From Nitrospiraceae bacterium (GTDB lineage: Bacteria; Nitrospirota; Nitrospiria; Nitrospirales; Nitrospiraceae), in contig JBFWWG010000012.1 in assembly GCA_050246315.1 (NCBI GenBank), positions 32,001-96,000 of the forward strand: a DNA stretch of 64,000 nucleotides, given 5' to 3'. The notes beneath the pieces are model-generated. The model made no database searches, was not told the origin of the DNA, and worked only from the letters and a program-made list of their open reading frames with translations. Of this stretch, positions 33,686 to 52,510 are shown piece by piece; position 1 is the stretch's first letter; each line of letters starts with the position of its first letter. The position numbers and the translations under genes are program-made.

Positions 33686-35041
33686 TCATCGCTCCCGTAA
33701 ACTCTCCGTCACGGATTTGAGGAGCGGGCTCAAGAGGTATTCCATCACCCGGCGCCGGCCGGTCTTCACTTCGACCGTCACGGCCATGCCGGGCGAAAGA
33801 TGCACCTGCTTGCCCTCCACCGGGATAGTGCTGCGATCCATGCTCACCCTGGTGGCATAGACCAGTCCACCCTTTTCCTTATCGAGCGGCACCGCATCGT
33901 CCGAGACGCTCAGCACCGTTCCGGGAATCGTCCCATAGATGGTGAAGGGGAACGTCTCGATCTTGATCTCGACCTCTTGGCCTTCTTTGACGAATCCCAC
34001 GTCCTTATTCTCGACCCGCGCCTCGACCTCCACCGGATGGGCCTGGGGCACGACCGTCAACAACGGTTGAGCGGGCGTGACGACCCCGCCGACCGTGTGG
34101 ACGGCGAGTTGCTGCACCACGCCGTCGATCGGCGAGACCAGTGTCTGGAGCTCGGCTTTCTGACCGGCCTTCACGACTTGCTGCGCCAGGGAGGCCGCCT
34201 TCGTTTCGGCCGCAGACAGTTCGGCCTGCTTGCTCTGCTGAAACTCCGAGACTAGAGCGCGGGCATTCTTCTCCGCCTCGGCCAGAGCCGCCAGGTCCTG
34301 AACCAGCTTCTGCCGGTTCTGCGCCAGTTCCTGTGCCTTATCGATCCGTTGCTGCTCGAATTGCAGGTAGTCCATCTTCGATACATACTGATGGTCGAGC
34401 AGCCGTTTGTAGGCCGCGGCCCGCTCGGCTTCAATGGGGACTGTCGCTTCCAGCCTTCGAATATTTTCTTTCGTTCCCTCCACCACGGCCCGCCGTTGTT
34501 CGACCAGCGATTGCGCCGCATCCAGGCGGGCTTGATATTCGGTAAGCTGATCGCGCAACAGTTGTTGCTGCAACTCGACCATGGCCGGCTCGGCATCTTC
34601 CGGCGCTTCCAGGATCGGGGTGCCGGCGATCAACGCTCGCAGTCGAGCCGCTTCCGTCCTCGCCGCGCGATATTCGTTGATCGCCTGCGCCCGGTCGGCT
34701 CGATTCTGAGTGGGGTCCAGTTCAATGAGCACGTCACCTCTCCGGACGATCTGTCCGTCCTGTACATGGATCGAGGAGACGACTCCGGTCTCGAAGGGCT
34801 GGATGACTTTCGAGTAGCCGCTTGGAATCACCTTTCCCGGCGCCACCGCGACGATGTCCAGCCAACCGAACCAGGCCCAGGCGACGGCTGCGATGAAAAT
34901 CCCGATAATGGTCCAGACGATCGCGCGCCCGATTGGAGACGGCGGTCTCTGTTCGATCTCCAGCACCGCCGGCAAGAATTCGACGGCACGACTGAGCGTG
35001 GGGGTTGATGCGCGATTTGACGGCACCGTGCCCTTCGCCAT
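33686..35041 (-). CDS. hlyD: T1SS membrane fusion protein (HlyD family)
   Basis: EFLPA.LEI...PPSP, TM helix, IQPFE.G.V, SPIDG.VQQLAVHTVGGVV, LSPGM.V.VEVKTG.R. Confidence 0.95.
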   Translation of the reverse strand: MAKGTVPSNRASTPTLSRAVEFLPAVLEIEQRPPSPIGRAIVWTIIGIFIAAVAWAWFGWLDIVAVAPGKVIPSGYSKVIQPFETGVVSSIHVQDGQIVRRGDVLIELDPTQNRADRAQAINEYRAARTEAARLRALIAGTPILEAPEDAEPAMVELQQQLLRDQLTEYQARLDAAQSLVEQRRAVVEGTKENIRRLEATVPIEAERAAAYKRLLDHQYVSKMDYLQFEQQRIDKAQELAQNRQKLVQDLAALAEAEKNARALVSEFQQSKQAELSAAETKAASLAQQVVKAGQKAELQTLVSPIDGVVQQLAVHTVGGVVTPAQPLLTVVPQAHPVEVEARVENKDVGFVKEGQEVEIKIETFPFTIYGTIPGTVLSVSDDAVPLDKEKGGLVYATRVSMDRSTIPVEGKQVHLSPGMAVTVEVKTGRRRVMEYLLSPLLKSVTESLRER

Positions 35042-35154
35042 TTCAGCCTCAACTCGCCAGGCCGAGACCCAGACTCCAAGATGACTCGCTATCGCATTCC
35101 ATGACATAAAGTTTAATAGAAGTATGATGTTATAACCTATTGATCTAATCGATC

Positions 35155-37326
35155 TCACGCAGCTTCCTGATCTCCCTGCTGATAGCGCGAGAGCCGTGCG
35201 TAGGCTCCGTTGCTCCTGAGGAGTTCCTCGTGCGTCCCTTGCTCGGCGATCTCGCCCTTCTCGATCACGAAAATGCGTTGGGCCGATCGCACCGTGCTCA
35301 GCCGGTGCGCGACGATGATGACGGTCCGACCTTGGCAAATCCGCGCCATGTTTCGCTGGATGACGGCCTCGGATTCGTAATCGAGCGCGCTGGTCGCTTC
35401 ATCGAAAATCAGGATGCGCGGATTGGCAATCAGCGCACGCGCAATGGCGATTCGTTGGCGCTGCCCGCCGGAGAGGGAGCAGCCCTGCTCGCCGACGATC
35501 GTGTCGTAGCCTTCCGGCAATTCCAGAATGAACTCATGAGCCCCGGCCAGCATCGCTGCCTGAATGACCCGCTCCATCGAGAGTCCGGGGTCCGCTTGGG
35601 CGATGTTGTCGCGTACCGACCGGTTGAACAGAAAGTTTTCTTGCAGCACCACCCCGACCTGCCGTCGCAGCCAGGCCGGATCGACCTGCGCCAGATCCAC
35701 CCCGTCCACGAGGACGCGGCCCCGTTCCGGCACATAGAGACGTTGAATCAGTTTCGCAATCGTACTCTTGCCCGAACCGGATCGTCCGACGATCCCGACC
35801 ACCTGACCCGGCTGCATCGCGAAGGACAGCTTGCGGAGGACTTCGCTGCCGTCGGATCGATACCGGAATGTGACCTCGTTGAAGACCACGTGGCCTTTTA
35901 CGGAAGGCAACGTCGTCCTGTTTGGATTGTACGAGGGCTCGGGCCTGCTGTTGAGCAGATCGCCCAAGCGCTGCATCGACACACCGACCTGTTGAAACTC
36001 CTGCCAGAGGTTCACGATCCGGAGTAACGGCCCCGTCACCTGCCCGGACAACATGTTGAACGCGATCAACTGACCGATGCTCAAGGTCCCGTCGATCACC
36101 AGGTAGGCGCCGGCCCAGAGAATCGCGATGACCGTCAGCTTTTGGATCAGACCCGCCACCTGGCCGGCCACCGTCATCAGGCTCGTGGTCCGGAAGCTCG
36201 CGTGCACATAGTCCGCCAGTTGCCCATCCCATCGACGCTGGAGGGGCGGCTCCAATGCCAGCGCCTTGACCGTTTGAATGCCGGTCACAGCCTCGACCAG
36301 AAAGGCCTGGTTCTCGGCGCCACGCGTAAACTTTTCGTTCAGCCGCGCTCGGATGACCGGCGTGATGACCAGCGAGAGCGCCGCGTACAACGGCAACGAC
36401 CCCAGCACGATCAGCGTGAGCCAGGGGCTGTAGAACCACATCACGCCTAGAAAGACCGCCGTGAAGAGGAGATCCAAGACGACCGTGACGGCGTGGCCGG
36501 TCAGGAACTGTCGGATCTGTTCCAGTTCGCGCACGCGCGCCACCGTATCGCCCACTCGCCGGGCTTCGAAGTACGCGAGCGGCAGCGAGAGGACATGTCG
36601 AAACAATTGCGCGCCGAGCGCCACGTCGATCCGATTGGTGGTATGAGAGAACAAGTAGGTGCGTAGCCCTCCCAGGAGGGCATCGAAGAGCGCCAGGCCC
36701 GCCATGCCGATCGCCAACACATGGAGCGTGGTGAAGCCCTTGTGAACGAGGACCTTGTCGATGACGACTTGGGTAAATAGGGGCGTCAGCAGCGCGAAGA
36801 GTTGCAGAAACAGCGACGCGAGCAGGACTTCTCCCAGGAGCCGACGATGCCTCACCAGTGCGGGAACGAACCAGGTGAAGTCGAACGTCAGATCTTGTGG
36901 CCGTCTGTGCGCTCGCTTCGTGAACAGCAGCAATGTGCCGGACCAGGCGGCTTCAAACGTTCGGCGGGTGAGGAGGAGAGGTCGCTCGCCCTGGGGATCT
37001 TGGATCAGGACCTTGTCGGCTTCGGCCTTGGCCAGCACGACGAACCGGCCGTCCTTCCGACGGGCCATGGCCGGCAGCGGCAGGGTCGGCAATTCGGACC
37101 AACCCACTGTCACCTGTCCGGCCTTCAACCCCAGATGCTTCGCCGCCCGGATCAGATCGCCTTCGTTGAGCGTTCTGCCGCTTTCCGCAAACTGGTGCCG
37201 AATCTGCCCGCCGTCCGCCGGCAAGTCAAAAAACCGCGCGAGGATCAGGAGACAGAGCAGGCCACTGTCTGGTTCGTGAACTGGTTCTGAACTGGATTGT
37301 TGGGATGAGTCGTCGGGCGGGCTCAT
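35155..37326 (-). CDS. hlyB: T1SS ABC transporter (HlyB family, C39-like domain without catalytic Cys)
   Basis: DSGLLCL CLD, FDFTWF, GRSGSGKST Walker A, LSGGQRQR, DEATSALD. Confidence 0.95.
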   Translation of the reverse strand: MSPPDDSSQQSSSEPVHEPDSGLLCLLILARFFDLPADGGQIRHQFAESGRTLNEGDLIRAAKHLGLKAGQVTVGWSELPTLPLPAMARRKDGRFVVLAKAEADKVLIQDPQGERPLLLTRRTFEAAWSGTLLLFTKRAHRRPQDLTFDFTWFVPALVRHRRLLGEVLLASLFLQLFALLTPLFTQVVIDKVLVHKGFTTLHVLAIGMAGLALFDALLGGLRTYLFSHTTNRIDVALGAQLFRHVLSLPLAYFEARRVGDTVARVRELEQIRQFLTGHAVTVVLDLLFTAVFLGVMWFYSPWLTLIVLGSLPLYAALSLVITPVIRARLNEKFTRGAENQAFLVEAVTGIQTVKALALEPPLQRRWDGQLADYVHASFRTTSLMTVAGQVAGLIQKLTVIAILWAGAYLVIDGTLSIGQLIAFNMLSGQVTGPLLRIVNLWQEFQQVGVSMQRLGDLLNSRPEPSYNPNRTTLPSVKGHVVFNEVTFRYRSDGSEVLRKLSFAMQPGQVVGIVGRSGSGKSTIAKLIQRLYVPERGRVLVDGVDLAQVDPAWLRRQVGVVLQENFLFNRSVRDNIAQADPGLSMERVIQAAMLAGAHEFILELPEGYDTIVGEQGCSLSGGQRQRIAIARALIANPRILIFDEATSALDYESEAVIQRNMARICQGRTVIIVAHRLSTVRSAQRIFVIEKGEIAEQGTHEELLRSNGAYARLSRYQQGDQEAA

Positions 37327-37583
37327 CGTCTTGGCATCGGCGGGACGGCCATCTCGTTGCCTCCTGCACACCTGGAGCAAACGGGCCTATCCTACTCACG
37401 CGCCGATGAATCGACGATTCTCCAGATGAATGGGATTCCCCCCTAATGGCACGGGGCCATACGGGACTCCACTCGGGAGGAATGAATGGACAAGGCCTGA
37501 TTGGGAAGACCGGGAGAGACCGCGAGCAGGAACTCCCTGGCGGATCAAGACCGCGACCTGATAGGACACAAGACTCGTGCGGG

Positions 37584-40500
37584 CTAGGACCAACTGGCAG
37601 CCAGGATGGCCTGCACGTCCTCCGGTCGCTGAGCAACGGCCGCTTCCCACGACAGGCCTGTTTGGCTCGTGAAGCCTGCCATCGCTTGGATGAGTTGATC
37701 GACCTGGTTGTTCAACAACTGCTGGCCGTTACCTGCAACGATGAGCTCCGTCTGATTGGACGTGCCGTCGTACCAATTGTGGATCGTGATCTGATCCGAC
37801 GTGCCGTAAAGCGCAATCCGCAGGTCATCGGCTTGCCGGCTCAGCACCAGATCCAACGGATCGATGGTCGCACCGAATCGTACCGTATCCTGGCCGGAGC
37901 CTCCGTCTTCGATCAACCGATCCTGACCATCCCCACGTGCGAAGAGATAGTCGTCGTGGCCTGAGCCTCCGATCAAGAGATCGTTCCCGGTTCCACCAGC
38001 AAGCTGATCCGCCCCGCTGCCGGCCAGGAGCAGGTCATCGTCCGCGCCTCCGCTGAGTTGGTCATCGCCCGATCCACCGTCGAGCATATCGGTGCCGTCG
38101 CCTCCATCCAGTAGATCGTGGCCGCTCCCGGCAGTGAGGGCGTCGTTCCCCAACCCGCCGAGAAGCTGATCGTGGCCGCTGCCGCCGAGCAGAAGATCGT
38201 GGCCCTCGCCGCCCTCCAACCGATCCTGGCCCGATCCCCCGTCAAGCCAGTTCATTCCGGCGTTGCCGATGATGAGATTGTTGAGCGAGTTCCCATGCCC
38301 ATTGATATTGCCGGTGCCGGTGAGCGTGAGGTTCTCGAGGTTGCTCCCCAGCGTCCAAGTGACGTTGGTCTGAATCGTATCGATGCCGCCTCCGGCGCTT
38401 TCAATCACCGTATCGCCCATCCCCACTACATAGGTGTCATTACCGGTTCCGCCGGTCAAGCGGTTCCGCCCGCTGTTGCCGACCAGGAGATTGTCCAGCT
38501 CGTTGCCCGTCCCAGTGAGATCCGCCGTGCCGGCGAGGGTGAGGTTCTCCACATTGGCGCCAAGGCTGTAACTCACGAGACTCTGCACCGTATCGAGACC
38601 TTCTCCGGCCATTTCGGTGACGACATCCCCGGGATCGTCTACGCTGTAGGTGTCGTGGCCCACCCCACCGGCCATCCGATCCGCTCCAACACCGCCGTCG
38701 AGGAGATCGTCGCCTCCACCCGATTGCATGTTGTCATTGCCGGCCAATCCCATCAGGCGATCCGTCGTGTCGGTGCCGGTGAGCGCATCGTCGTTGGCAG
38801 TCCCGACGAAGTCGAACCCGCGCGCGAGCAGGTCTTGATAGGTCAGGACCGTCCCATCGGCAAAGCGGAACGTCTCGATCGCACGCGGGCCGAACACGTC
38901 GGCGGGATCGAAGGAGGTGAGGTGAATAGCATCCCCACCTGCTCCGACCCGAATCACCAGTGACCCTAATCCGAGGCTCAGATCGGCCGGCGTGATGCCG
39001 GCTCCAAATTGGAGGCTGTTCCCCTCGCCGGGCAGCGCCTGATCGGTAATGGTATCGACGCCATCTCCCAGATTGAACAGATACGTGTCGTCGCCGGGTC
39101 CGCCGGTCAGCGTATCGTTCCCGGTTCCGCCGGCAATCCTGTCATTCCCCGCGCCGGCGTCCACGACGTCGTTCCCGTCCAACGCCTCGATCTCATCGTC
39201 GGCGAGGCCGCCCTCCAGCAGATCGTCGCTATCGGTCGCCCGCGGTCCCAGCAGGTCCGCCACCCGCACCGTCGTCCCGTCGGCAAATGCGAGGGTCTCG
39301 ACCACCAGCGAGCCGTTCAAATCGTTCGGATCGAAGTTTACCAGCCGCAGCGCATCGCCGTTGGTCCCAATCTGAATCGTCAGGAGACCGCTGGATTGAA
39401 CGAGGGTCAGATCAGCCCGTGAAATTCCGGCGCCGAATTGGATCACGTTGCCGTCGCCCGGAACGGCACGATCGTCGATCGTATCGATGCCATCGCCGGC
39501 GTTGAACAGATAGGTGTCGTGGCCTGCGCCGCCAAGCATCCGATCATTTCCCTGCTTTCCTGCCAACACGTTGGCGGCTTGATTGCCCACCAAGACATTG
39601 TTGAGTGCATTTCCGGTCCCTGTGCTAGGCCCCTCCCCGATGAGTGTGAGGTTTTCCAGATGATCACCCAGCACATAACTCACGGCACTGGCCACGGTAT
39701 CGATACCCTCACCCGCCGCTTCAACGATGGTATCGGGCAGGCCCGTATCGGAGGCCAGGCCCATCACGGCATAGGTGTCGTTGCCAGTTCCTCCGATGAG
39801 CAGATCATTTACCCCGTCATCCGACATGCTTTCGGCGAGCGCCTCGTTGATCGAAAGGGAGGGGCGCAGGCTCCCGCCCGCCAACGTATCGTCCCCCGCT
39901 CCACCGGACAACACGTCGGCATTCCGGCTGCCGATCAGGAGGTTATCGAGGGCATTGCCCGTACCAGTCATCGCCGGCCCATCGCCCGGCGGCAGGCCCC
40001 AGGTCGTCAGTTGAAGATTCTCGACATGATCGGGCAGCTCATAGGAAACGGAACTCCGGACCGTATCGATCCCGCCATCCGTCTGCTCCGCAATGATTTC
40101 GCCGGAATTGTAGATCACATAGGTGTCGTCCCCGGCGCCGCCAACCAAGACATCATCAGCCAGGATAGAGGACGGGTTGCTGACCGGGAGAATCGCTTCC
40201 TGCCCGGACATGAATCGGACGGTACCTCCGATCGGCGCCAAGATGTCGTCGCCTGCTCCACCGATCAGCATGTCGCTCTGCGACTCGTCGAACGCCACGG
40301 ACGACGCCCGGACATATCCTCCAACGAGGACATCGTTGCCGGCGCCGCCGTCGATCGTGCTGGCTCCGCCGTTCTCCACGAGAACATTGTCGAGTTCGTT
40401 CCCGATGAGCTGGAAGTTCGACGAGGCCGCCCGTAGCGCCTCCACATGAGTGGGCAAGGTGTAGACGGACGGCACATCCCCGGTCACCGTATCGAATCCC

Positions 40501-43500: not shown

Positions 43501-46500
43501 TGGTCAAAGGCGTTCCCGTTATGCCGAATTCGATCATCCGGCGTCCCCACTATCAGAAAGGATCCCTGTCGATCTTGTCCCAACCGGAGCAAATCGATCG
43601 TGATGCCGCTGCCAAACTCAATGACATTGCCACCGGAGACATCAAAGACTTGATCCTCGCCATCGCCGAGGTTGAACCGATACCGATCGGCTCCATCCCC
43701 GCCAAGGACGGCATCATTGCCGGCCCCCCCTTCGAGCCGATCGGCGCCGGCCCCACCGTCTAACGTATCGGCCCCCTCGTCGCCGAACAATTGATCCTCG
43801 TCCTCGTCGCCATACAACGTGTCATTTCCCGTTCCACCGGTGAGCACGTCTCGATCGAGACCGCCGACCAACGTATCCTGTCCGTCCTCGCCAAAGAGTG
43901 TATCGTTCCCTTCTTGACCGAAGAGCCGGTCGTTGCCCGTATCGCCCACGAGCAGGTCGTCGCCGAGGTTGCCCTGCAGCTCGTCGTCCCCGGCATTTCC
44001 AAAGAGTCGGTCGTTGCCATCTTGGCCGAAGAGCAGATCATTGCCGGTCCCGCCGTCCAACTCATCCGTACCGATCCCTCCATCCAATTGATCGTCGCCG
44101 TCCTCGCCGAACAGCCAATCATCGCCCGCCTCGCCGAACAGCAGATCGGCCCCCTCCTCTCCCACTAAGGCATCGGCCCCGTCCCCGCCGGCCAGTTGAT
44201 CGTTGCCGGTCCCGCCGTAGAGGCTGTCATCGCCAGCGTCGCCGAACAACCGATCCTGCTCGCTGCCGCCGTCCAGCAGATCGTGACCGCCGCCCCCTTG
44301 CAATTCATCGCTCCCCGCGCCCCCATCGAGCGTGTCGTCAAAGCCCTGCGTAAGATTGTTGAGATAATCCCCCACCAAGAAATCATCGCCGTCACCTCCG
44401 AACAGCGCATCCTCGCCACCCCCGCCGATGAGTTCATCGTCCCCGAGCCCGCCGTCCAGCCAATCCTTGCCTTCTTGGATCACGCCGAGCTGAAGATCGT
44501 CTCCGGCCAGCACATCGACACCGGCTCCGCCAAGCAGCACATCGCCGCCCGCATCGCCTTGGAGATAGTCGTCTCCCTCACCGCCGTCGAGATAGTCCGC
44601 ACCACCCGTGACGCTATCAAAGGCCATACCACTTTGCGGCGTCACCACGCCCGGGTAGGCCAGTTCGAAGTTCGGCGCCGTAGCTGGCGCCTGATCGCCA
44701 TACAGCCGGTCATTCTCGGTGCCTCCCACCAACACATCCTCCCCGAGCATCCCCATCAACCAGTCCGCGCCGGCTCCGCCGTCCAGATAATCGTTGCCTG
44801 TCGTGGTCGCTCCCAGCGCCAGAGATTCCCCGGAGAGTAGATCGTTGCCGTCCTGCCCAAACAGCACATCGTCCCCGGAACCGCCATCGAGTCCGTCATC
44901 CCCGAGCCCGCCGGACAACGCATCCTGGCCGGTGCCTCCCTTGAGCAAATCAATGTCGTCCCCACCGTCCAGGACATCGTCGCCGCCGAACCCGCCCAGA
45001 ACGAGATCCCGTCCACTCCCCCCGAACACCCGATCATGGCCGTTGCCCCCGCGCAGCTCATCGTGGCCGTCGCCCCCGAAGATCTGATGATGGAAGAGCA
45101 TGCTCCCGCTTTCGAAGTTGAGAATGTCGTTGCCGCCATATCCGTAGGCTTCATGGTTTGCGGCAGCGGTGAAGATGGGCTGATTGTCCGTCGCGTCGCC
45201 GTCGTAGCGGATGGTCGCTTCACCGTTGTTGTAGTTGATAGTCGGGCCGGCGCTATCGACGAGGTTGCCTACATCGGCCAGCTTGATCCCCAACGCGCCA
45301 TTGGCGAAATCGAAGCTCTCGATGATAAGCGCATTATTGATCACGAGGTTCGCACCGGACTTCACGAAGGTAACCTGGCCGTCGGGACTCCGGTACGTAT
45401 CGATAGGATCACCCTGCCGTCGAATCCCCCCGACCAGCGTCTGCCCATCGAAGACAATCGTGCCGATTCTGTCGGCATCGACGATGCGATCCAGTCCTTG
45501 GCCCGAATGATAGAAATAGGTATCGAGGCCGGTGCCGCCGTCGAGCCGATCATCGCCGAGTCCGCCATTGAGCCGGTCGTTCTCGGCTTCGCCAAACAGT
45601 TGATCGTCGCCCTGCTGGCCCAAGAGAATATCGTTCTCGCTGCCACCGTAGAGTTCGTCACTCCCCGCGTTGCCTTCGAGATAATCTTGCCCACCTTGCC
45701 CGATCAGAAGATCGTCGCCGGCTCCACCATAGAGATGATCCCCGCCGGCATGGCCCGTGAGATCGCGGTTGTCCTGGGCATCGCCGAAGATCACCTCGTT
45801 CGCAGAGGCGACGCTACCCAGTTCCAATCCGGTCTGTTTGTCCACGTAATGCGTGTCGGTTGGAACCGTGTCGCCATCGTTGATATTCACCGCCAATCGC
45901 TTGGCCAGTAGCTCCGCTCGATCGCTCAAGGCATTCAAGGTCCAGGCGCCTTGCCCCGTCACCGTATCGTAGAGGTCCAGCGAGCCGTCTTGACTGTGCA
46001 TGGCCTGATAGTCCACGCCGCGCACAACGAACGGATTGAGTTCTTTGAGTGCATATCGATACGCCAGGCCATCGGCAGTTGAGGCTTTGGCTTGGCTATA
46101 CACCATACTATTGGAAACTCCGGCAAGACTGTCGAGACGATAGGAACTGACTGACGGCAGGTTGTCTCGGAAGGCGAAGAGATTGGTGTAGTAGGCGTCG
46201 CGATCACCCACTGGTGTTGTGGTTTGATTAGGTCCCAGGACCACCTTCCGGAGGGCGTCGAGGCCATTTTCTAGGCTATTGACCGCTGTTGCGGAGGCAG
46301 CATTGAGGATGGTTGTCACACTGGAGACAGACAGGCTCGGGTCGATGCGTGCGAACACATCGTACAAAGCCAACGCATCAACAAGAGACCGGGCGCTATG
46401 ATTGGTCAGCGGGTTCAGACTCGTCTCGATAAATGCATGTTCTACCTCTCCGAGTTGGCGGCCCTGACTGGAGACAAAAGAGGGGCCCTCCGCAATGAGG

Positions 46501-47063
46501 TTCGTAATCAAATGGTTGTCTATGGAAGCACCGGCCACGCCAAGAGAACCAAACGGATTGACCAGCACCCCACCGAACCCGGGAGCATTGTAGGTATAGG
46601 TATGGGATACGTTCAGTGGATGGTCGACGGTAAAGGCTTGAGCAAGATAACCACCCAGCGAATGTCCGGTGATAGTGAGATTGTCCGTGGGTAACAGCTT
46701 GCCCTCGGTGGTGAGTTGCAAATAGAAATTCTTCAACGAGACATATTGATCGGCTAGACCAAATAGGCCGATCTGGAGATCTGAAAGGAGGAGGTCTACG
46801 ACGTCGTTCGTCCCGCGGATTGCCAGAACCTTTTCGTTCGTGCCGATCCGCTGAAACAACGTCGCCGCAAATCCCGTCGTAACGTCGTTGAAGGTGCTGA
46901 CAATCGAGTATCGATTTGCAAACTCGGCTGCCTCAAGCGAGGCAAAGCCCCGCTCCTTCAACTCTTGGATATAGTCCGGCAAAGGCATTCCCACAAACAG
47001 CTCGGCATAGGCCGCATCCGCAAGTTGGGCCTGATCGTAATACGTACGGATTAAACCGCTCAT
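37584..47063 (-). CDS. 3159-aa RTX protein with N-terminal alpha/beta-hydrolase (lipase-like) domain
   Basis: GFAATLF, AIRGT, TGHSLGG, YNAPG in the first ~230 aa; many GGxGxDxL nonapeptides; HCBP-like F.DGT modules; C-terminal QLIQAMAGF secretion-signal-like end. Confidence 0.92.
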   Translation of the reverse strand: MSGLIRTYYDQAQLADAAYAELFVGMPLPDYIQELKERGFASLEAAEFANRYSIVSTFNDVTTGFAATLFQRIGTNEKVLAIRGTNDVVDLLLSDLQIGLFGLADQYVSLKNFYLQLTTEGKLLPTDNLTITGHSLGGYLAQAFTVDHPLNVSHTYTYNAPGFGGVLVNPFGSLGVAGASIDNHLITNLIAEGPSFVSSQGRQLGEVEHAFIETSLNPLTNHSARSLVDALALYDVFARIDPSLSVSSVTTILNAASATAVNSLENGLDALRKVVLGPNQTTTPVGDRDAYYTNLFAFRDNLPSVSSYRLDSLAGVSNSMVYSQAKASTADGLAYRYALKELNPFVVRGVDYQAMHSQDGSLDLYDTVTGQGAWTLNALSDRAELLAKRLAVNINDGDTVPTDTHYVDKQTGLELGSVASANEVIFGDAQDNRDLTGHAGGDHLYGGAGDDLLIGQGGQDYLEGNAGSDELYGGSENDILLGQQGDDQLFGEAENDRLNGGLGDDRLDGGTGLDTYFYHSGQGLDRIVDADRIGTIVFDGQTLVGGIRRQGDPIDTYRSPDGQVTFVKSGANLVINNALIIESFDFANGALGIKLADVGNLVDSAGPTINYNNGEATIRYDGDATDNQPIFTAAANHEAYGYGGNDILNFESGSMLFHHQIFGGDGHDELRGGNGHDRVFGGSGRDLVLGGFGGDDVLDGGDDIDLLKGGTGQDALSGGLGDDGLDGGSGDDVLFGQDGNDLLSGESLALGATTTGNDYLDGGAGADWLMGMLGEDVLVGGTENDRLYGDQAPATAPNFELAYPGVVTPQSGMAFDSVTGGADYLDGGEGDDYLQGDAGGDVLLGGAGVDVLAGDDLQLGVIQEGKDWLDGGLGDDELIGGGGEDALFGGDGDDFLVGDYLNNLTQGFDDTLDGGAGSDELQGGGGHDLLDGGSEQDRLFGDAGDDSLYGGTGNDQLAGGDGADALVGEEGADLLFGEAGDDWLFGEDGDDQLDGGIGTDELDGGTGNDLLFGQDGNDRLFGNAGDDELQGNLGDDLLVGDTGNDRLFGQEGNDTLFGEDGQDTLVGGLDRDVLTGGTGNDTLYGDEDEDQLFGDEGADTLDGGAGADRLEGGAGNDAVLGGDGADRYRFNLGDGEDQVFDVSGGNVIEFGSGITIDLLRLGQDRQGSFLIVGTPDDRIRHNGNAFDQAVFADGTTIAWTALLAQLQTKGVLTLGGPGNEEMIGSDLADEMQAGDGHDQLSGLAGDDILRAESGNDTLYGGLGHDRLEGGEGNDSLRGEDGDDLLIGGRGEDFLDGGPGHDTYLHMQGDGRDVIADTAVAGAGNVLRFGPGISSQSVRLGVDGSNLTVQTGVPGEDIVLANARRTNPTGAHDIETFQFADGTTLTYAELVARGFTLVGTSGSDNLFGTALPDRLQGGAGDDQLVGMAGHDQYVFNLGDGIDTITDSTTAGEGNEMVFGPGITPGMLRLGFLRNDSILTIRVGTGGDELRLSGFNPDDVFGLHAVETFRFSDGTVLSYNQLIARGFEVAGTPGADTLAGTNGADRMVGGAENDVLQGKDGDDVYVFNRGDGWDRVLDRAGMADAIHFGTDVLPSDVAVRRQGRDLVLSINGTTDRLTLSEFFLASTFQIEQVHFADGTVWDTADLEAATQTRLAGTVADDVVVGGTGVDILTGLSGNDELRGLDGDDVLDGGTGDDRLIGGTGDDQYLVDAPGDTIVELPGEGIDSVFSAVSHALAPNLERLTLTGTGAVDGTGNDLDNVLIGNAAANVLAGGQGNDTYLIGEGDTVVELPGAGTDTVQTTATATLGAHIENLVLCGTGSINGTGNELDNVLSGNGSVNILAGRAGNDTYIVKGFEQIVEEAGQGIDTVESARTYRLGANLENLVLRDSDLSLLEIQGVESPTVDGFGNGLDNTLVGNRGVNRLDGGAGMDTLIGGAGDDLYVVDHSGDVVIERIAEGYDTVESSASFQLSDHLERLVLTGIADIAGLGNGLDNILIGNSGANLMDGGGGNDLLDGGSGNDTYRFGIGSGLDQISDFTGSETIQLGDGIAPGDIRVLSNSNEILAIPNNLVLAIGSTGDKLRVVGYFDQAAPPIVRFQDGTTWEKTTVVGLWKAAFSPFDTTDWRHLTQRREAPASIVGTSGDETLIGTAVPDRFVSAVGADTLIGGTGDDVYRIDSVGDDTVVEQPGEGFDTVTGDVPSVYTLPTHVEALRAASSNFQLIGNELDNVLVENGGASTIDGGAGNDVLVGGYVRASSVAFDESQSDMLIGGAGDDILAPIGGTVRFMSGQEAILPVSNPSSILADDVLVGGAGDDTYVIYNSGEIIAEQTDGGIDTVRSSVSYELPDHVENLQLTTWGLPPGDGPAMTGTGNALDNLLIGSRNADVLSGGAGDDTLAGGSLRPSLSINEALAESMSDDGVNDLLIGGTGNDTYAVMGLASDTGLPDTIVEAAGEGIDTVASAVSYVLGDHLENLTLIGEGPSTGTGNALNNVLVGNQAANVLAGKQGNDRMLGGAGHDTYLFNAGDGIDTIDDRAVPGDGNVIQFGAGISRADLTLVQSSGLLTIQIGTNGDALRLVNFDPNDLNGSLVVETLAFADGTTVRVADLLGPRATDSDDLLEGGLADDEIEALDGNDVVDAGAGNDRIAGGTGNDTLTGGPGDDTYLFNLGDGVDTITDQALPGEGNSLQFGAGITPADLSLGLGSLVIRVGAGGDAIHLTSFDPADVFGPRAIETFRFADGTVLTYQDLLARGFDFVGTANDDALTGTDTTDRLMGLAGNDNMQSGGGDDLLDGGVGADRMAGGVGHDTYSVDDPGDVVTEMAGEGLDTVQSLVSYSLGANVENLTLAGTADLTGTGNELDNLLVGNSGRNRLTGGTGNDTYVVGMGDTVIESAGGGIDTIQTNVTWTLGSNLENLTLTGTGNINGHGNSLNNLIIGNAGMNWLDGGSGQDRLEGGEGHDLLLGGSGHDQLLGGLGNDALTAGSGHDLLDGGDGTDMLDGGSGDDQLSGGADDDLLLAGSGADQLAGGTGNDLLIGGSGHDDYLFARGDGQDRLIEDGGSGQDTVRFGATIDPLDLVLSRQADDLRIALYGTSDQITIHNWYDGTSNQTELIVAGNGQQLLNNQVDQLIQAMAGFTSQTGLSWEAAVAQRPEDVQAILAASWS

Positions 47064-47075
47064 TCTAACTTCCTC

Positions 47076-47606
47076 CTATTGCTCGCTTGCATTTTGGCGA
47101 ACGACCTGACGCCACAGGGTGCCGTAGAGATCACGACCAAATTGCGGACAAGGATCCGGGGCAGCTTCAATCAAGATCGTCGTATGCAACCAACCACCGA
47201 AGTAAGAGAATCCTGTTGCCATACCCAAATGTTCTCCGTTTTCTTTATCAATGAGGACGCCTTGATGTTTTGTCATATGAAACACTCTCGAAAAGGCGCG
47301 GTCCATTGTCGTTTGCCAGTCGAGCCGTTCGAGTAGCAATTTCTTCTCATCCAGTCGTCCGTCAGGCATGAAATATGTCTTGTCCACCTCAATAGTCTTG
47401 AAGACTTCTACCCCTCCCTCTTTCTGGCAAATGTATTGATGGTACAGCCGTCCAGGAATGATGTCCCACGTGGGGATCAATACAAAGATCGCGATGGTTG
47501 CGTATTTTGCAAGCTTGCTCTGCGTACGCACTTCCATTCGCTGGGCCATATACCGCGCAAGCCCGACATAAAGCCCGCAGAGGAGAAGAACCGCTAAGCC
47601 AAACAT
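47076..47606 (-). CDS. Membrane-anchored immunity/partner-like protein A
   Basis: Two N-terminal hydrophobic helices, PTWD..PGR.Y..Y.C.KEGG....KT, GGW...CP; ends 12 nt before the RTX start. Confidence 0.75.
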   Translation of the reverse strand: MFGLAVLLLCGLYVGLARYMAQRMEVRTQSKLAKYATIAIFVLIPTWDIIPGRLYHQYICQKEGGVEVFKTIEVDKTYFMPDGRLDEKKLLLERLDWQTTMDRAFSRVFHMTKHQGVLIDKENGEHLGMATGFSYFGGWLHTTILIEAAPDPCPQFGRDLYGTLWRQVVRQNASEQ

Positions 47607-47696
47607 CCACGCCGCCTTTCGCTTGTGGTGATTGCCAAGTCGCCGTTGCCTAAGGTCATCACCCTTACCGGCATACCTATGGGCGTTCAGAGAGGG

Positions 47697-48347
47697 CGTT
47701 CCGGACATCTTCCCAATGATTTCATCGCGAAGCGTCCGTGTCCCAAGTACCGCGGCCTGACCCCACCCGCAAGCCGCGGCATCCTAGGTGATTGCCCGAT
47801 TGAAATGCGATTCTTCAGAGGAGGAGTGGGCTCCCCTACTGGTAGGTGCCCTGCGCGTCGCGAAGGACGACTCGCATCGAACCGCCGGGCATTGCTGATT
47901 GAGACTGATTGTCTCGGGATCGGGAGGACTTGTCGAGGATTTCCGCCGAGATGGACGGCGCGCACCACGACCATCACGAAAATGGGACCATTGCTACTTT
48001 GAATCGTGATCAGCCTCCAATCACTTCGCCAACTCGAACGGCCTGTCCAGATACGGCCCCCACCCAGGGTTGTGCGACAGTCTTTTGCCTGCCAAGACCA
48101 ACTTGGACGAGCCGAAGAACGCGCCTGCAATTGAGAAGAAGCACCGGCGGTCCTCGCGGAGCATCCCAGAAGTCCGTTCGTGGTGAGCCTGTTGAACCGT
48201 GAAGGGAACTGCTTCAGCCCGGGCGCTCTTCGAGCGGCTCAGGACGAATGGATTATCACAGGAACTTAAAGGACACTACTACGGTGGCTGAGTCTGAAGG
48301 GCGGCCAGCCGGACGGGCTCGACAGCCGAGTATCAAGTCAAGCAACG
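47697..48347. repeat. Cassette leader repeat, copy 1 (651 bp)
   Basis: Near-identical to 51113-51763 (constant offset 3416) and similar to 49650-50222. Confidence 0.95.
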
Positions 48348-48628
48348 CCCCCTAAGCAGGTATCGAAGATCAGCGTCGCCGAGAACCCTGTCGCATCGTT
48401 GGCGTGATGATCGAGGATTTGGTAGCGCTGGATGAATTGCTGCGCTTGAAGAGCGGTGAAACGAGTCTTACCCATGAACTGGTCAAGGGGAACTACACGG
48501 CGGTCATTATTGCCGTCTATAAGGACTTGTTGAAGTGTACTACCCTGCACCACAAACTGATCAAGATAAGACTCCGCTGCCGTTTGTTGAAGAGCAAAAT
48601 CGAGCCAAGTCTTGATGCTAGTTGCCAT
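48338..48628 (-). pseudogene. Orphan 5' stub of a divergent RTX-lipase (cassette B)
   Basis: MATSIKTWLDFALQQTAAESYL...RYQILDHHANDATGFSATLIFD aligns with the RTX N-terminus and stops right after GFSATL. Confidence 0.8.
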
Positions 48629-49589
48629 CTTTCTGCTCCTTCACGTCGAATGGAAAAGGTTTCAGAACTTTTTGTATAAATTTGAAAGTATGGTTGGTTC
48701 CTCGATTTGGACAACTAGGCCCTGTCAACCACCAGACACCCGTCATGTTGTTGCGAACTAAGCCGGTTCGCATATACCCACGGCGGACGGCCAGTACCTC
48801 GTTCGTCTTGAGATCAAGAACGATGAGCTCACCGCCAGCAATTCCCAATGTCCTCTCATGTGGCCGATTGATTCCCCGCCACGTGTAACCATATCGGCTC
48901 TTGATCTCTGACACGGTCGCTTCTGCAACAACATAAGGAACAAACACTCCTTGCTCGTTTATTGCCGTCTGATATTTTCTTCCCGGGTGTGCGTTCTCGT
49001 CTCGGAAGTACCGTCGATATCGTTCAGCCTCACCAGATGATCCTGATAAGGGCACCTCCAAGAACTGATACTTGCCGGTAGCTGGTTGAACATATGTATC
49101 CTGCACAAGATAGGATTCATCTGTTGTGTGGCCATAGGGGTCTTCTAGAGCATACAGATGACTCAGTTCATCATCCGTGGCTTCCTTCCTCGGCCGCATC
49201 ATGTACAGCCCTTCCACATTCTCTACGGTCTTGTAGATAAACTCCCCGGCTTCGGCCTTGCAGAGATGTTCGAAATACTGCTCGGGTGTCATGCCCGGCT
49301 TGTACCCGCTGTCTGCCGGCACTGGATTGGGAATCTTGAGTGAGTGCGCGAACCGACCTTCTTCGGTCGCCAGCGGATCGGCGGGTTGAAGCTTCGTGAT
49401 GTCGCACCGGTGGTTGGCGGGTTTGATCTTATGCGTGGCACAGTATTCAGCTTCTCGTTTGATCGCTTTCCGAAATCGCTCGCCGGGTGTCTCGTCCTGC
49501 GACAGCAACCCGGCGATGGCATACGAGGCACTCAACAGCCCAATCACGAAGACCATCATGCTGCGGCCTCCCTTCATTTCGATGCTCAT
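48618..49589 (-). CDS. Secreted immunity/partner-like protein B
   Basis: AAGGAGG RBS, signal peptide, FEHLCKAEAGEFIYKTVENV, IAGGEL.V.DL.TNEVLAVRRGY, W.TGPSCP; overlaps the stub start. Confidence 0.75.
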   Translation of the reverse strand: MSIEMKGGRSMMVFVIGLLSASYAIAGLLSQDETPGERFRKAIKREAEYCATHKIKPANHRCDITKLQPADPLATEEGRFAHSLKIPNPVPADSGYKPGMTPEQYFEHLCKAEAGEFIYKTVENVEGLYMMRPRKEATDDELSHLYALEDPYGHTTDESYLVQDTYVQPATGKYQFLEVPLSGSSGEAERYRRYFRDENAHPGRKYQTAINEQGVFVPYVVAEATVSEIKSRYGYTWRGINRPHERTLGIAGGELIVLDLKTNEVLAVRRGYMRTGLVRNNMTGVWWLTGPSCPNRGTNHTFKFIQKVLKPFPFDVKEQKDGN

Positions 49590-49649
49590 CCCATCCTCCT
49601 TAGCTCCATGGCCTTCTCCACCCGGAGCCGCAGGCGGACTCACATCCGC

Positions 49650-50222
49650 AGCCGCGGCATCCTAGGTGCTTGCCCGATTGAAATGCGATTCTTCAGAGGA
49701 GGAGTGGGCTCCCCTACTGGTAGGTGCCCTGCGCGTCGCGAAGGACCGTTATCCTTCAGCCGCCGAACATTGTTGATTGAGGCTGATTGTCTCGGGATCA
49801 GAAGGACTTGTCGAGGAGTTCCGCCGAGATGGACGGCGCGCACCACGACCATCACGAAAATGGGACCATTGCTACTTTGAATCGTGATCAGGCTCCATTC
49901 ACTTCGCCAACTCGAACGGCCTGTCCAGATACGGCCCCCACCCAGGGTTGTGCGACAGTCTTTTGCCTGCCAAGACCAACTTGGACGAGCCGAAGAACGC
50001 GCCTGCAATTGAGAAGAAGCAACGGCGGTCCTCGCGGAGCATGCCAGAAGTCCGTTCGTGGTGAGCCTGTCGAACCATGAACGGAACTCCTTGAGCTCGG
50101 GCGCTCTTCGAGCGGCTCAGGACGAATGGATTATCACAGGAACTTAGAGGACAGTACTGCGGTGGCTGAGTCTGAACGGCCAGCCGGACGGGCTCGACAG
50201 CCGAGTATCCAGTCAAGCAACG
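49650..50222. repeat. Cassette leader repeat, copy 2 (more divergent)
   Basis: Colinear with copies 1 and 3, with scattered substitutions. Confidence 0.93.
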
Positions 50223-50226
50223 ACCC

Positions 50227-50481
50227 TCAAGCAACGTCATGACCCTCAAGCAACATCCTGCCGTTCCGTTGGAACAACGTCGCGGCAAATCCCGTCGTAA
50301 CGTCGTTGAAGGTGCTGACAATCGAGTATCGATTTGCAAACTCGGTTGCCTCAAGCGAGGTAAAGCCCCTGTCTGTTAAGGCTCGGACATAAATATCTTC
50401 AAGCATACCCACGGCCAAATTGGCATATGCCGCATCGGACAATTCGGCGTGCTCATAATACGTGCGGATTGCCTCGTTCAT
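50227..50481 (-). pseudogene. Orphan 5' stub of the RTX-lipase (cassette C)
   Basis: MNEAIRTYYEHAELSDAAYA...RYSIVSTFNDVTTGFAATLFQR, then unrelated residues; GGAGG RBS. Confidence 0.85.
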
Positions 50482-50482
50482 T

Positions 50483-51022
50483 TCAGGTACCTCCAGAATT
50501 CGTTTCTGTCTTGGGACGAAAGACCTCCTGCCAAATCTTCTCATAGGGATCAGGGCTGAACTGCGGACAAGGATCTGGCGCAGCCTCACTTAGGATTGTC
50601 GTATGGAGCCAGCCGCCGAAGTAGGAGAACTGTGTCGCTGTCCCCAATTTATCTCCGGTTTGCCTATCAAGAATGGAAAGTTGATGCTTCGTGATACGGA
50701 ATACTTTCGAAAATCCTCGAACTATGCTTGTTTGCCTATCGAAGCGCTTTTGAAGTTCTTTTTCATCCAGTCGTCCGTCAGGCATGAAATACGTCTTGTC
50801 CACCTCAATAGTCTTGAAGACTTCTACCCCTCCCTCTTTCTGGCAAATGTATTGATGGTACAGCCGTCCAGGAATGATGTCCCACGTGGGGATCAATACA
50901 AACATCGCGATGGTTGCGTATTTGCCAAGCTTGCTCTGCGTACGCACTTCCATTCGCTGGGCCATATACCGCGCAAGCCCGACATAAAGCCCGCAGAGGA
51001 GAAGAACCGCTAAGCCAAACAT
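50483..51022 (-). CDS. Membrane-anchored immunity/partner-like protein C (paralog of A)
   Basis: First 88 aa nearly identical to A, C-terminal half diverged. Confidence 0.8.
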   Translation of the reverse strand: MFGLAVLLLCGLYVGLARYMAQRMEVRTQSKLGKYATIAMFVLIPTWDIIPGRLYHQYICQKEGGVEVFKTIEVDKTYFMPDGRLDEKELQKRFDRQTSIVRGFSKVFRITKHQLSILDRQTGDKLGTATQFSYFGGWLHTTILSEAAPDPCPQFSPDPYEKIWQEVFRPKTETNSGGT

Positions 51023-51112
51023 CCACGCCGCCTTTCGCTTGTGGTGCTAGCCAAGTTGTAATTACCTAATCTCATTGCTCCTGGTTACATACCTATGGAC
51101 TCTTCGAGATGA

Positions 51113-51763
51113 CGTTCCGGACATCTTCCCAATGATTTCATCGCGAAGCGTCCGTGTCCCAAGTACCGCGGCCTGACCCCACCCGCAAGCCGCGGCATTC
51201 GAGGTGCTTGCCCGATTGAAATGCGATTCTTCAGAGGAGGAGTGGGCTCCCCTACTGGTAGGTGCCCTGCGCGTCGCGAAGGACGACTCGCATCGAACCG
51301 CCGGGCATTGCTGATTGAGACTGATTGTCTCGGGATCGGGAGGACTTGTCGAGGATTTCCGCCGAGATGGACGGCGCGCACCACGACCATCACGAAAATG
51401 GGACCATTGCTACTTTGAATCGTGATCAGCCTCCAATCACTTCGCCAACTCGAACGGCCTGTCCAGATACGGCCCCCACCCAGGGTTGTGCGACAGTCTT
51501 TTGCCTGCCAAGACCAACTTGGACGAGCCGAAGAACGCGCCTGCAATTGAGAAGAAGCACCGGCGGTCCTCGCGGAGCATCCCAGAAGTCCGTTCGTGGT
51601 GAGCCTGTTGAACCGTGAAGGGAACTGCTTCAGCCCGGGCGCTCTTCGAGCGGCTCAGGACGAATGGATTATCACAGGAACTTAAAGGACACTACTACGG
51701 TGGCTGAGTCTGAAGGGCGGCCAGCCGGACGGGCTCGACAGCCGAGCATCCAGTCAAGCAACG
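51113..51763. repeat. Cassette leader repeat, copy 3
   Basis: Near-identical to 47697-48347. Confidence 0.95.
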
Positions 51764-51938
51764 ACCACAAGGCCTCGACTCCACCGGCTTGGGCAGGGTA
51801 TCAGCCAACCGCGACATCCGGGGTCACTGGATTGGCCTGATCAGCCTGTGAATCAGAAAGGAAAGTGCGGGCTGGACGCAGATTGCCTACGCTGCAAGCT
51901 GGCGAGAGCCGACAGCGCCGCTCGCTCACGTGATCCCG

Positions 51939-52370
51939 TTATGGAGCGGCGGGCAGGATCGTTCTGGCGAGGGCGGTGGCGGTGAAGTCGCTTCCGATCG
52001 AGCTCTTGACGTTGTCAGGGGGCGCTTCGATCAACGCTTCGACCTGCATGACCATCCCGTGGCGTGCGGGTTGGGTCAGGCTTTCATCCTCCTGGCATCG
52101 CACCAGATAGACCACTCTGATCGTTCCCGTGCTGTCTTCCAGATCGAAGTCCTGTCCACAGAGCGATTGGACCGCGACATTCCTGCCCGACCTCGTCCCG
52201 ATCACATGGACTTTCCCTTGTATGCGGACCACCTTTCGGTGAAAGCCTGTCGGATTGGACAGGATCTTCTCAATCGGGATGATCTGGTCTGCTGCGAACG
52301 CGGGCACGCCTCCAACGCAAACCGTCAAGACACCGATGCCGAAGACGGTTTGGACAAACCCTGTTCTCAT
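51939..52370 (-). CDS. Secreted OB-fold-like protein
   Basis: Signal peptide (PAFA), I..IL.NP..F..K.V.I.G.V and F.LEDSTG.I.V motifs. Confidence 0.7.
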   Translation of the reverse strand: MRTGFVQTVFGIGVLTVCVGGVPAFAADQIIPIEKILSNPTGFHRKVVRIQGKVHVIGTRSGRNVAVQSLCGQDFDLEDSTGTIRVVYLVRCQEDESLTQPARHGMVMQVEALIEAPPDNVKSSIGSDFTATALARTILPAAP

Positions 52371-52455
52371 CGGTCTACTCCCTTCTGATTGTTGCCCCAT
52401 CCAGACTGTACGACAGGCCGCGTCAATGCCCAACTAATTCTGCGCTTTGGTCTCG

Positions 52456-52484
52456 TTGACAAGCCGGTTGCTCCCACCTAAGAT
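52456..52484 (+). promoter_or_regulatory. Sigma70-type promoter
   Basis: TTGACA-17 nt-TAAGAT upstream of the UDG gene. Confidence 0.65.
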
Positions 52485-52510
52485 TCGCCCCGTTCATCTA
52501 TCCGACTGTT

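Follow-up and report, generated by a model that had tools for sequence, protein, structure and literature searches.

An array of partner and truncated-lipase units upstream of a type I-exported lipase-RTX gene: a candidate toxin-immunity locus with an N-terminal variable end

Why would a bacterium keep, ahead of one gene for a giant secreted lipase, two further copies of that gene's beginning, each behind an intact small gene of its own? The question arises from the minus strand of a 64,000-nucleotide stretch of a Nitrospiraceae genome (GenBank assembly GCA_050246315.1, contig JBFWWG010000012.1, positions 32,001 to 96,000; hereafter the window, in whose numbering its features are given), where a lipase with RTX repeats is encoded next to genes of a type I secretion system (T1SS). 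Listing and translation of the open reading frames (ORFs) give the order leader 3-partner C-stub C, leader 2-partner B-stub B, leader 1-partner A-lipase-RTX gene, hlyB and hlyD, the stubs being truncated lipase 5' ends. The original prediction had seen in this three-cassette layout a polymorphic toxin system in mirror image; every part was recovered at or near its predicted position, and the interpretation as a whole is partly supported. The explanation that we favor, with slightly more confidence than doubt, is that the locus encodes a T1SS-exported lipase that would be toxic, a periplasm-facing cognate partner that would bind it and confer immunity, and displaced upstream orphan units. A toxin with periplasmic immunity fits best because of the invariant catalytic residues, the predicted envelope location of the partners, the intact partners beside truncated lipases and the constant polarity of the arrays.

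All features of the locus lie on the minus strand. Partner A (47076-47606) has 176 residues from a conserved start, MFGLAV, in an ORF open to 47708, and directly precedes the lipase-RTX ORF (37584-47063; 3159 residues). The latter has RTX repeats and a GHSLGG motif; its residues 1-420 (45804-47063) form a lipase-like domain and the remainder a body rich in RTX and beta-roll sequence. Further upstream come leader 1 (47607-48358), a non-coding repeat unit, and stub B (48338-48628), a B-type lipase start of ~90 codons that breaks off at the 5' edge of leader 1; it shares 56% and 55% identity with the beginning of the full B-type lipase-RTX genes in two related genomes (G002 and G001, respectively). 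Partner B follows (48618-49589; 323 residues from MSIEMK, ORF open to 49643), then leader 2 (49590-50255) and stub C (50227-50481), in which 74-75 codons of an A-type lipase start are followed by a short run of codons foreign to that context, up to a stop at the edge of leader 2. Partner C (50483-51022; 179 residues) is an intact paralogue of partner A, and leader 3 (51023-51774) adjoins the native upstream gene. By self-BLAST, cassette A (46838-48350) matches cassette C (50256-51766) at 88% over 1517 nt, leader 1 (47750-48358) matches leader 2 (49628-50233) at 93% over 610 nt, and leader 2 (49628-50225) matches leader 3 (51166-51766) at 93% over 602 nt; pairwise identity among the three ~600-nt leaders is 93-99%.

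Where cassettes A and C differ is confined to one block. In a sliding window, identity is 100% in the leader, 93-100% over partner codons 1 to ~88 and 97-98% over lipase codons 38-73, and it falls to 55-77% from partner codon ~89 to lipase codon ~37. In the expressed cassette this block occupies 46952-47340 and comprises partner A codons ~89-176, a 12-nt spacer and lipase codons 1-37. Synonymous (dS) and nonsynonymous (dN) divergence, estimated by the Nei-Gojobori method, is 0.07 and 0.01 in partner codons 1-88, 1.94 and 0.30 from codon 89 to the end (dN/dS ~0.15), 1.07 and 0.39 in lipase codons 1-37, and 0.16 and 0.04 in lipase codons 38-74, with dN/dS within the block ranging from 0.15 to 0.36. 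As read from these profiles, the polymorphic unit is the C-terminal ~90 residues of the partner together with the first ~37-45 residues of the lipase, an old, selectively maintained allelic block between young, near-identical arms. Such a pattern points to recombination and not to local decay. The original prediction of a variable N-terminus with an upstream partner holds in that the variation is N-terminal and shared with the partner; its unit, however, is not a domain of ~400 residues but the C-terminal half of the partner plus lipase residues 1 to ~37-45. Co-variation within such a block, kept under purifying selection, is as expected of a specific protein-protein interface and suggests that partner and lipase bind each other.

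The same contrast between block and arms is found in other arrays. Across 31 within-array pairs from 16 loci, which are not independent since 10 come from a single Rhodocyclaceae locus (L061), median identity is 85% in the N-terminal part of the partner, 46% in its C-terminal 100 residues, 47% in lipase residues 1-45 and 77% in residues 51-140. The N-terminal part of the partner is more similar than the C-terminal part in 26 of the 31 pairs, and lipase residues 51-140 are more similar than residues 1-45 in 28. L061 itself shows the block profile of the window. The pattern is sharp in L061, L078, L092, L098, L099 and L101, and absent where the units of an array belong to different deep types.

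Relatives also differ in the cassette that is fused to the RTX body, a comparison that the original prediction had called for: it is B-type in G001 and G002 and A-type in the window, and G003 has an A-type unit. G002 and G001 each have a single B-type unit, in which a partner B homologue (71% and 57% identity, respectively) is followed by a full B-type lipase-RTX gene. Partner type tracks the N-terminal type of the lipase (A with A, B with B) in G001, G002, G003, G016 and G018. G016, which belongs to another genus, combines, in this order, partner B with a 709-residue B-lipase ORF, partner A with an A-lipase ORF of ~530 residues, and partner A with a lipase-RTX ORF of 2089 residues. Partner B occurs in 32 of 121 Nitrospiraceae genomes (a tally that includes the window genome and G009, a genome flagged as unpublished), and a B-type lipase start directly follows it in 25 of the 28 loci in this family that could be assessed. 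Decayed loci were also seen: in G010 (L132) the partner B match contains 6 stops, and in G018 (L029) partner A is split in two frames.

How widespread is this arrangement? In a pattern scan that covered a single genome for each species, 329 of 461 candidates were relatives of the lipase domain, and 77 loci were retained. These represent Nitrospira, Nitrosomonas, Rhodocyclaceae, Gallionellaceae (Gallionella), Thiobacillus, Burkholderiales, Thiodiazotropha, Sulfurovum, Desulfobulbales and others, and hold 114 lipase 5' modules. Two or more modules on one strand are present in 25 of the 77 loci, from several phyla. In 24 of these 25 arrays the partner and truncated-lipase modules stand upstream of the long gene, in agreement with the predicted upstream storage; the last module of these 24 is either a long gene or runs off the contig. 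In L061 (332-6388), six consecutive units of a lipoprotein partner and a truncated lipase are followed by unrelated genes, so that this locus is either an orphan-only array or one whose expressed gene lies past the contig end.

The partner gene is a constant feature of these modules. After exclusion of 8 of the 114 modules as too near a contig start, an ORF on the same strand (at least 80 residues, ending at most 400 nt away) precedes the lipase in all 106 that remain, typically with a gap of -4 to +20 nt and frequently with a 4-nt overlap. By single-linkage clustering of blastp matches, 95 of the 106 upstream ORFs form one unannotated superfamily, and those that stand before truncated lipases are for the most part of full length. 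In 32 of the 77 loci the 10-kb flanks contain a HlyB homologue, often in the order hlyB-hlyD-partner-RTX. The position of the T1SS genes varies: they are upstream and on the same strand in L036, L037, L039, L040, L050, L090 and others, and downstream in the window and in G001.

What does the large protein look like? An AlphaFold model of lipase residues 1-420 reaches a mean predicted local distance difference test score (pLDDT) of 87.5 and a predicted template-modeling score (pTM) of 0.88. A Foldseek search of the PDB gave 45 matches at E<=0.001, with feruloyl esterase A and fungal lipases at the top; among the matches listed, all are class-3-type lipases or esterases plus a lipase effector of E. 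cloacae's type VI secretion system (T6SS) (9cys_A; rank 6, E 9e-7), which aligns with a template-modeling (TM) score of 0.49 on the target and at most 16% sequence identity. The family I.3 T1SS lipase 2zj7 comes only at rank 46 (E 1e-3, TM 0.23 on the query). Across 28 aligned sequences, G133, H134, S135, G137, G138, H222 and D229 are invariant and E213 nearly so. On the strength of the model, residues 1-420 are assigned a class-3-type serine lipase fold. The sole Pfam match to a lipase or hydrolase model, Mbeg1-like, stays below its curated cut-off (17.5 against 21.1 bits), Pfam having no model for this domain family, and searches of PDB sequences with the domain, as a single sequence and as a profile, gave only weak class-3 lipase matches. 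A search of 1.84 billion representative sequences returned 2746 relatives of the domain at E<=0.001, of which 355 reach E<=1e-30, and among the best 150 of the 2746 most matches begin at the first residues of the protein. RTX repeats were found in 11 of 14 relatives examined, in proteins of up to 3790 residues, the remaining three having 426-472 residues; in 4 of the 14, the RTX body contains adhesin-type domains (He_PIG, cadherin-like, Big_9).

The RTX nature of the window's protein rests on a HemolysinCabind match (2e-22) within the first 688 residues of the long ORF and on 27-nt periodic repeats in the DNA, while all RTX-family NCBIfam matches to it are below their cut-offs. Export would be provided for by the two genes downstream. 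The HlyB-type ABC exporter (35155-37380, minus strand; 741-residue ORF) scores 1031 bits with TIGR01846 against a cut-off of 725.55 and has the Pfam domains ABC_membrane (6.4e-61), ABC_tran (3.8e-34) and an N-terminal Peptidase_C39 (1e-18). The ORF as listed starts at a TTG at 37380, and an in-frame methionine (MSPPDD...) lies 18 codons in. Its C39-like domain has DSG at what we take to be the position of the catalytic cysteine of C39 peptidases. The HlyD-family membrane-fusion protein (33686-35338, minus strand; 550-residue ORF) matches HlyD_3 of Pfam at 2.4e-20 and TIGR01843 at 416.2 bits, against a cut-off of 208.65.

The partners are proteins without a name. Partner A has 59 homologous clusters, all unnamed or "hypothetical", and partner B has 1570 homologues at E<=0.001 that are named only "hypothetical"; neither belongs to a Pfam or NCBIfam family, their ESM Atlas matches are unnamed clusters only, and PDB sequence searches returned nothing for either (single sequences; profiles to E<=0.3). 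The start of partner A is set by its homologues, whose starts align at the methionine of MFGLAV, and by copy C, which has stops upstream of that methionine. Partner A begins with two hydrophobic helices, separated by a loop rich in lysine and arginine, the second with an invariant PTWD motif, and continues into an alpha+beta domain (model pLDDT 90.8), where, across 29 aligned sequences, C60 never varies and C153 occurs in at least 90%; the charged loop and the conserved cysteine pair fit a predicted topology with a periplasmic domain. Foldseek found no match to its model at E<=0.001, the best being hot-dog thioesterases at E 0.02 and TM below 0.25. Partner B has an N-terminal signal-like segment, and in most of its aligned relatives this is a lipobox or lipoprotein-type signal. 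A distant relationship links the two partners across 72 columns at the C-terminus (hhalign probability 94.9%, E 4.5e-8). A complex prediction for lipase residues 1-420 with partner A residues 50-176 scored 0.00 and, having been run without controls, is uninformative either way. A HlyC-type acyltransferase was considered for the gene upstream of the RTX gene and rejected, as there is no Pfam hit and membrane segments are present.

Across the superfamily, 89 of 95 partners have N-terminal hydrophobic segments, with a lipobox in 27 and a two-helix inner-membrane arrangement in at least 39. These counts come from a crude script, and 3 of the 6 partners called "none" visibly have a lipobox that its threshold under-called. 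The partners are accordingly predicted to be envelope-anchored and periplasm-facing, and their signals are as would be expected for immunity against a lipase acting in the periplasm. A third partner type, ~600-residue signal-peptide proteins forming a family of their own, was seen in three Nitrospira loci (L045, 7744-9531; L047, 4179-5960 and 7586-9472; L049, 8150-9982).

The leaders, originally read as elements of the cassettes, prove to be composite. About 120 nt of each (~48161-48279 in leader 1, ~50039-50157 in leader 2, ~51577-51695 in leader 3) is a dispersed element resembling repetitive extragenic palindromes (REP) or miniature inverted-repeat transposable elements (MITE), with 15 further genome copies of ~113-132 nt at 73-83% identity on contigs C1, C2, C4, C5, C6, C8-C11, C13, C18, C19 and C25 of the source genome (G000). 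G002 has two tandem copies at the same place of the locus, and the element may seed rearrangements. The remaining ~450 nt is found at this locus only, and since this unique part has no further copy in the 4.39-Mb genome, its repetition here is far beyond chance. It is present in the three other genomes of the genus and in none of 37 further relatives searched. In the genus it is the intergenic region between a conserved gene for a 164-residue OB-fold protein and the partner gene, and its proximal ~270 nt are kept whether an A-type or a B-type partner follows. This part of the leader is therefore the operon's native, promoter-proximal upstream region, and each unit carries a copy of it. A promoter-like TCGACA-17-GACAAT is found on the minus strand at 47908-47936, 49786-49814 and 51324-51352 in leaders 1, 2 and 3, within a stretch conserved across all six aligned leaders, and may serve as a promoter.

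Where A-type and B-type leaders diverge (47607-47900 and its equivalents in leaders 2 and 3; L025, L026, L027), a GC-rich hairpin (CCGCGGC...GCCGCGG) was noted whose pairing is preserved in the two types with different letters; it could represent an attenuator or a cis-regulatory RNA. A scan of 46500-52600 against Rfam assigned no family, and two sub-threshold snoRNA matches were taken as chance. The idea that the leader is a coding gene was rejected, as its ORFs are arginine-rich, lie on both strands and have no homologues.

Could the triplication be an artifact of assembly, as the original prediction allowed? Of the words sampled from the locus, 0.90-0.91 were found in 14 DNA runs from 6 studies, and the contigs of four metagenome or RNA-library runs were compared against it. 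Two DNA runs of different studies (X5, X10) yielded identical 1389-nt contigs that match 48305-49693 with zero differences and span the junctions of stub B with leader 1 and of leader 2 with partner B. Contigs of the same two runs span the junction between leader 3 and the flanking gene (51717-52100), and in one RNA-library contig (X16) stub C (50314-50256) runs into the 5' end of a leader. The cassette junctions are thus seen independently, but the contigs are too short to phase the order of the three units. A depth spike with loose ends at 50044-50094 in leader 2, seen in all four runs, is as expected for a multi-copy element. One X5 contig joint that skips 46806-48221 was disregarded, as one of its sides has only 21 letters.

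How might such a locus work? We propose that the lipase-RTX protein and partner A, whose genes are probably co-transcribed, form a cognate binding pair, most likely toxin and immunity protein. The lipase would be exported C-terminus first through HlyB/HlyD and attack the membranes of neighboring cells, and the periplasmic partner would neutralize any lipase that reaches the envelope of the producer or its siblings. Specificity would reside in one contiguous block of DNA encoding the C-terminal ~90 residues of the partner and the first ~37-45 residues of the lipase. The alleles of this block would be old and diverged, and recombination within the arms (one formed by the leader and the partner 5' half, the other by lipase codons ~38-75) would import new ones. 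A unit made of leader, partner and lipase 5' piece could integrate by single crossover or unequal exchange, pushing the previous unit upstream and leaving its lipase truncated; of these routes, single-crossover integration of a circular or tandem unit would give the observed polarity. The outcome would be the mirror image of the orphan arrays of contact-dependent inhibition (CDI) and Rhs loci. As the orphan partners are intact, each with a leader and a promoter-like site, the cell could keep immunity to lipase types that it no longer makes.

Several observations weigh against this proposal. We know of no route by which a 3159-residue T1SS substrate would enter the periplasm of another cell. 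Type I secretion bypasses the periplasm of the producer, so that immunity in the periplasm would be of use only against lipase that comes back in from outside. Stubs B and C are too short (~90 and 74-75 lipase codons) and both lack the catalytic Ser135; they are not the spare toxins that they had been predicted to be. In 9 of the 16 array loci the paralogous units are uniformly diverged and show no sharp block, and L061 has no full-length RTX gene in the DNA seen. The partner B family, at a mean column identity of 65% over 26 sequences, is conserved in a way unlike many immunity families. The promoter-like sites are not enriched (4 found, against 2.8 +/- 1.9 in shuffled sequence), and RNA-library contigs over partners A and B (X15, X16) prove neither transcription nor its level, just as bins that such contigs leave uncovered carry no meaning. 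Toxicity, binding and protection, finally, are predictions from sequence.

The main rival explanation makes the partner an envelope or surface tether like FrpD, or a kin-recognition receptor, that would hold the last-emerging N-terminus of the RTX protein on the producer or its kin, with the alleles setting who sticks to whom. Gene order is that of frpD-frpC, in which a lipoprotein gene immediately precedes an RTX gene, and the accessible text on that pair reports that FrpD binds FrpC's N-terminal domain with a dissociation constant of ~0.2 nM (PMC5233953). The lipobox in 27 of 95 partners would suit a tether, as would the adhesin-type domains in the RTX body of 4 of 14 relatives and the fact that co-variation in the lipase affects the extreme N-terminus and not the catalytic core. 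Such a tether gives no reason, however, for intact partner genes beside truncated lipase stubs that cannot be exported; the invariant catalytic serine and histidine argue that enzyme activity matters; and the two-helix inner-membrane partners, at least 39 of 95, cannot reach the cell surface. With the partners as profiles, searches of PDB chains gave no match to FrpD, a weak negative. We hold this explanation to be improbable. A lesser chance is given to the partner being dedicated to production of the lipase, as a foldase, an activator or a helper of secretion of the Lif or cytosolic-Tli kind, with the arrays as by-products. This would account for the tight linkage, whose frequent 4-nt overlap suggests coupled translation, and for the single superfamily that accompanies all lipase subtypes; block co-variation fits any specific binding pair, and Tle activity needs Tli according to the text available from 10.1101/2023.03.28.534661. 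But T1SS substrates skip the periplasm, where the partners are predicted to be, and orphan partners would be useless to such a role, yet the diverged half of partner C is under purifying selection (dN/dS ~0.15), a divergence that may predate its orphan state. An accessory role is in any case compatible with immunity, since Tli does both.

The upstream units might instead be neutral debris, left when REP-mediated or unequal recombination duplicated the 5' end of the operon and now decaying. Each leader does contain the dispersed REP-like element, with its 15 further copies in the genome and the tandem pair in G002; the stubs are short, with out-of-context codons at their ends; and some relatives are visibly decayed, as with the 6 stops in G010 and the split partner in G018. 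Unit B, however, is no duplicate of A: it is of another, deeply diverged type, which sister species have as their expressed unit, and the partner ORFs B and C are intact while their lipases are cut. The polarity is the same in 24 of 25 arrays from unrelated lineages with different junctions and no shared leader, and near-identical arms around a synonymous-saturated block are the signature of allele recombination, not decay. Like the accessory role, debris seems to us quite unlikely. A lipase toxin with a cognate, periplasm-facing immunity protein remains the explanation that we prefer.

A bolder extension of that explanation, which we offer as speculation more doubtful than credible, is that these loci represent a widespread unrecognized class of T1SS-delivered interbacterial lipase toxins of chemolithotrophic biofilm bacteria (nitrifiers, iron and sulfur oxidizers), in which one short, swappable block across the immunity 3' and toxin 5' ends would encode specificity and the upstream units would both archive immunity and supply silent donor cassettes in the manner of pilS. 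Stub C has the variable codons 1-37 and the conserved arm 38-74, and could therefore convert the expressed gene and switch the toxin type. A literature search, with most subscription journals outside its reach, turned up no account of upstream partner arrays at a lipase-RTX gene. If the pair is indeed toxin and immunity protein, type I secretion would join type V, type VI, type VII and other routes as a carrier of polymorphic antibacterial toxins, and the rule that the variable end and the orphans lie 3' would be a consequence of the position of the export signal and not a property of such systems. It would also give a function to the lipase-like domain (2746 representative clusters) and to two partner families (59 and 1570 clusters), and imply contact or near-contact warfare among nitrifiers and sulfur and iron oxidizers in wastewater and sediment biofilms, organisms whose mechanisms of competition are little known. 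The narrow co-varying block would further offer a compact system in which to study the evolution of binding specificity.

The surroundings of the locus can be described briefly. Directly upstream, on the minus strand, the 164-residue ORF (51939-52433) has a weak OB-fold match and is 70-96% identical in the three other genomes of the genus. The T1SS operon is closely followed on its downstream side, again on the minus strand, by CRISPR-Cas genes for a Cas3-like helicase/HD protein and members of the GSU0054 and GSU0053 families, with a gene for a WYL/WCX-domain regulator between them and the operon (together 21827-28737 and 32005-33021).

How does the locus compare with known systems? It resembles the family I.3 T1SS lipases (LipA of Pseudomonas and Serratia, TliA, PML) in having an N-terminal serine lipase, C-terminal RTX repeats and, as predicted here, export by an ABC transporter, a membrane-fusion protein and an outer-membrane protein; those lipases have ~600 residues and neither partner gene nor arrays, whereas the body alone is here ~2700 residues long. 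As in frpD-frpC of Neisseria meningitidis, an envelope lipoprotein gene lies directly upstream of a T1SS RTX gene. Unlike the protein described here, FrpC has an N-terminal domain that is not a lipase. FrpC contains a self-processing module. The partners have no sequence relation to FrpD that profile searches detected. [quoted passage not shown] (PMC6759196) hypothesizes that FrpC and FrpD are a T1SS antibacterial effector-immunity pair; the idea of an RTX protein and an upstream lipoprotein in these roles is therefore not new. Neither orphan arrays nor a co-varying block are described for frpD-frpC in that portion. Min-Wnt domains, too, are fused N-terminal to RTX repeats, which suggests T1SS export (PMC12419801, as far as its accessible text goes).

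With the T6SS pair Tle/Tli of E. cloacae (PDB 9cys) the locus shares a GxSxG serine lipase of similar fold and an adjacent partner that is lipoprotein or membrane-anchored and periplasmic, as predicted here. In the text available from 10.1101/2023.03.28.534661, the periplasmic lipoprotein Tli neutralizes the lipase Tle, and a cytosolic pool of E. cloacae Tli is required to activate it. Here, by contrast, the lipase heads a 3159-residue RTX protein exported by a T1SS, the partner A model has no Foldseek match to Tli at E<=0.001, and no T6SS parts (VgrG, Hcp, PAAR) are among the Pfam matches of the ORFs flanking the locus.

The closest likeness in organization is to polymorphic toxins, which vary at the C-terminus (Zhang et al., 2012, PMC3482391); the part of that source available to us does not list the T1SS among polymorphic-toxin routes and names a Type I system only for large RTX toxins. 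As in CdiA-CT/CdiI of CDI systems, Rhs and MafB, a large exported protein with a conserved body has a terminal segment that exists as diverged alleles, an adjacent small cognate gene co-varies with it, conserved arms surround the block, and displaced units of fragment and partner are stacked beside the full-length gene. Unlike in those systems, the variable protein segment is here ~37-45 residues of a conserved enzyme domain and not a whole toxin domain, the variable block includes half of the partner, and export is by a T1SS. Above all, the variable end is here N-terminal and the partner and orphans lie upstream, and we therefore file the locus as a variant, not a member, of the polymorphic toxin systems.

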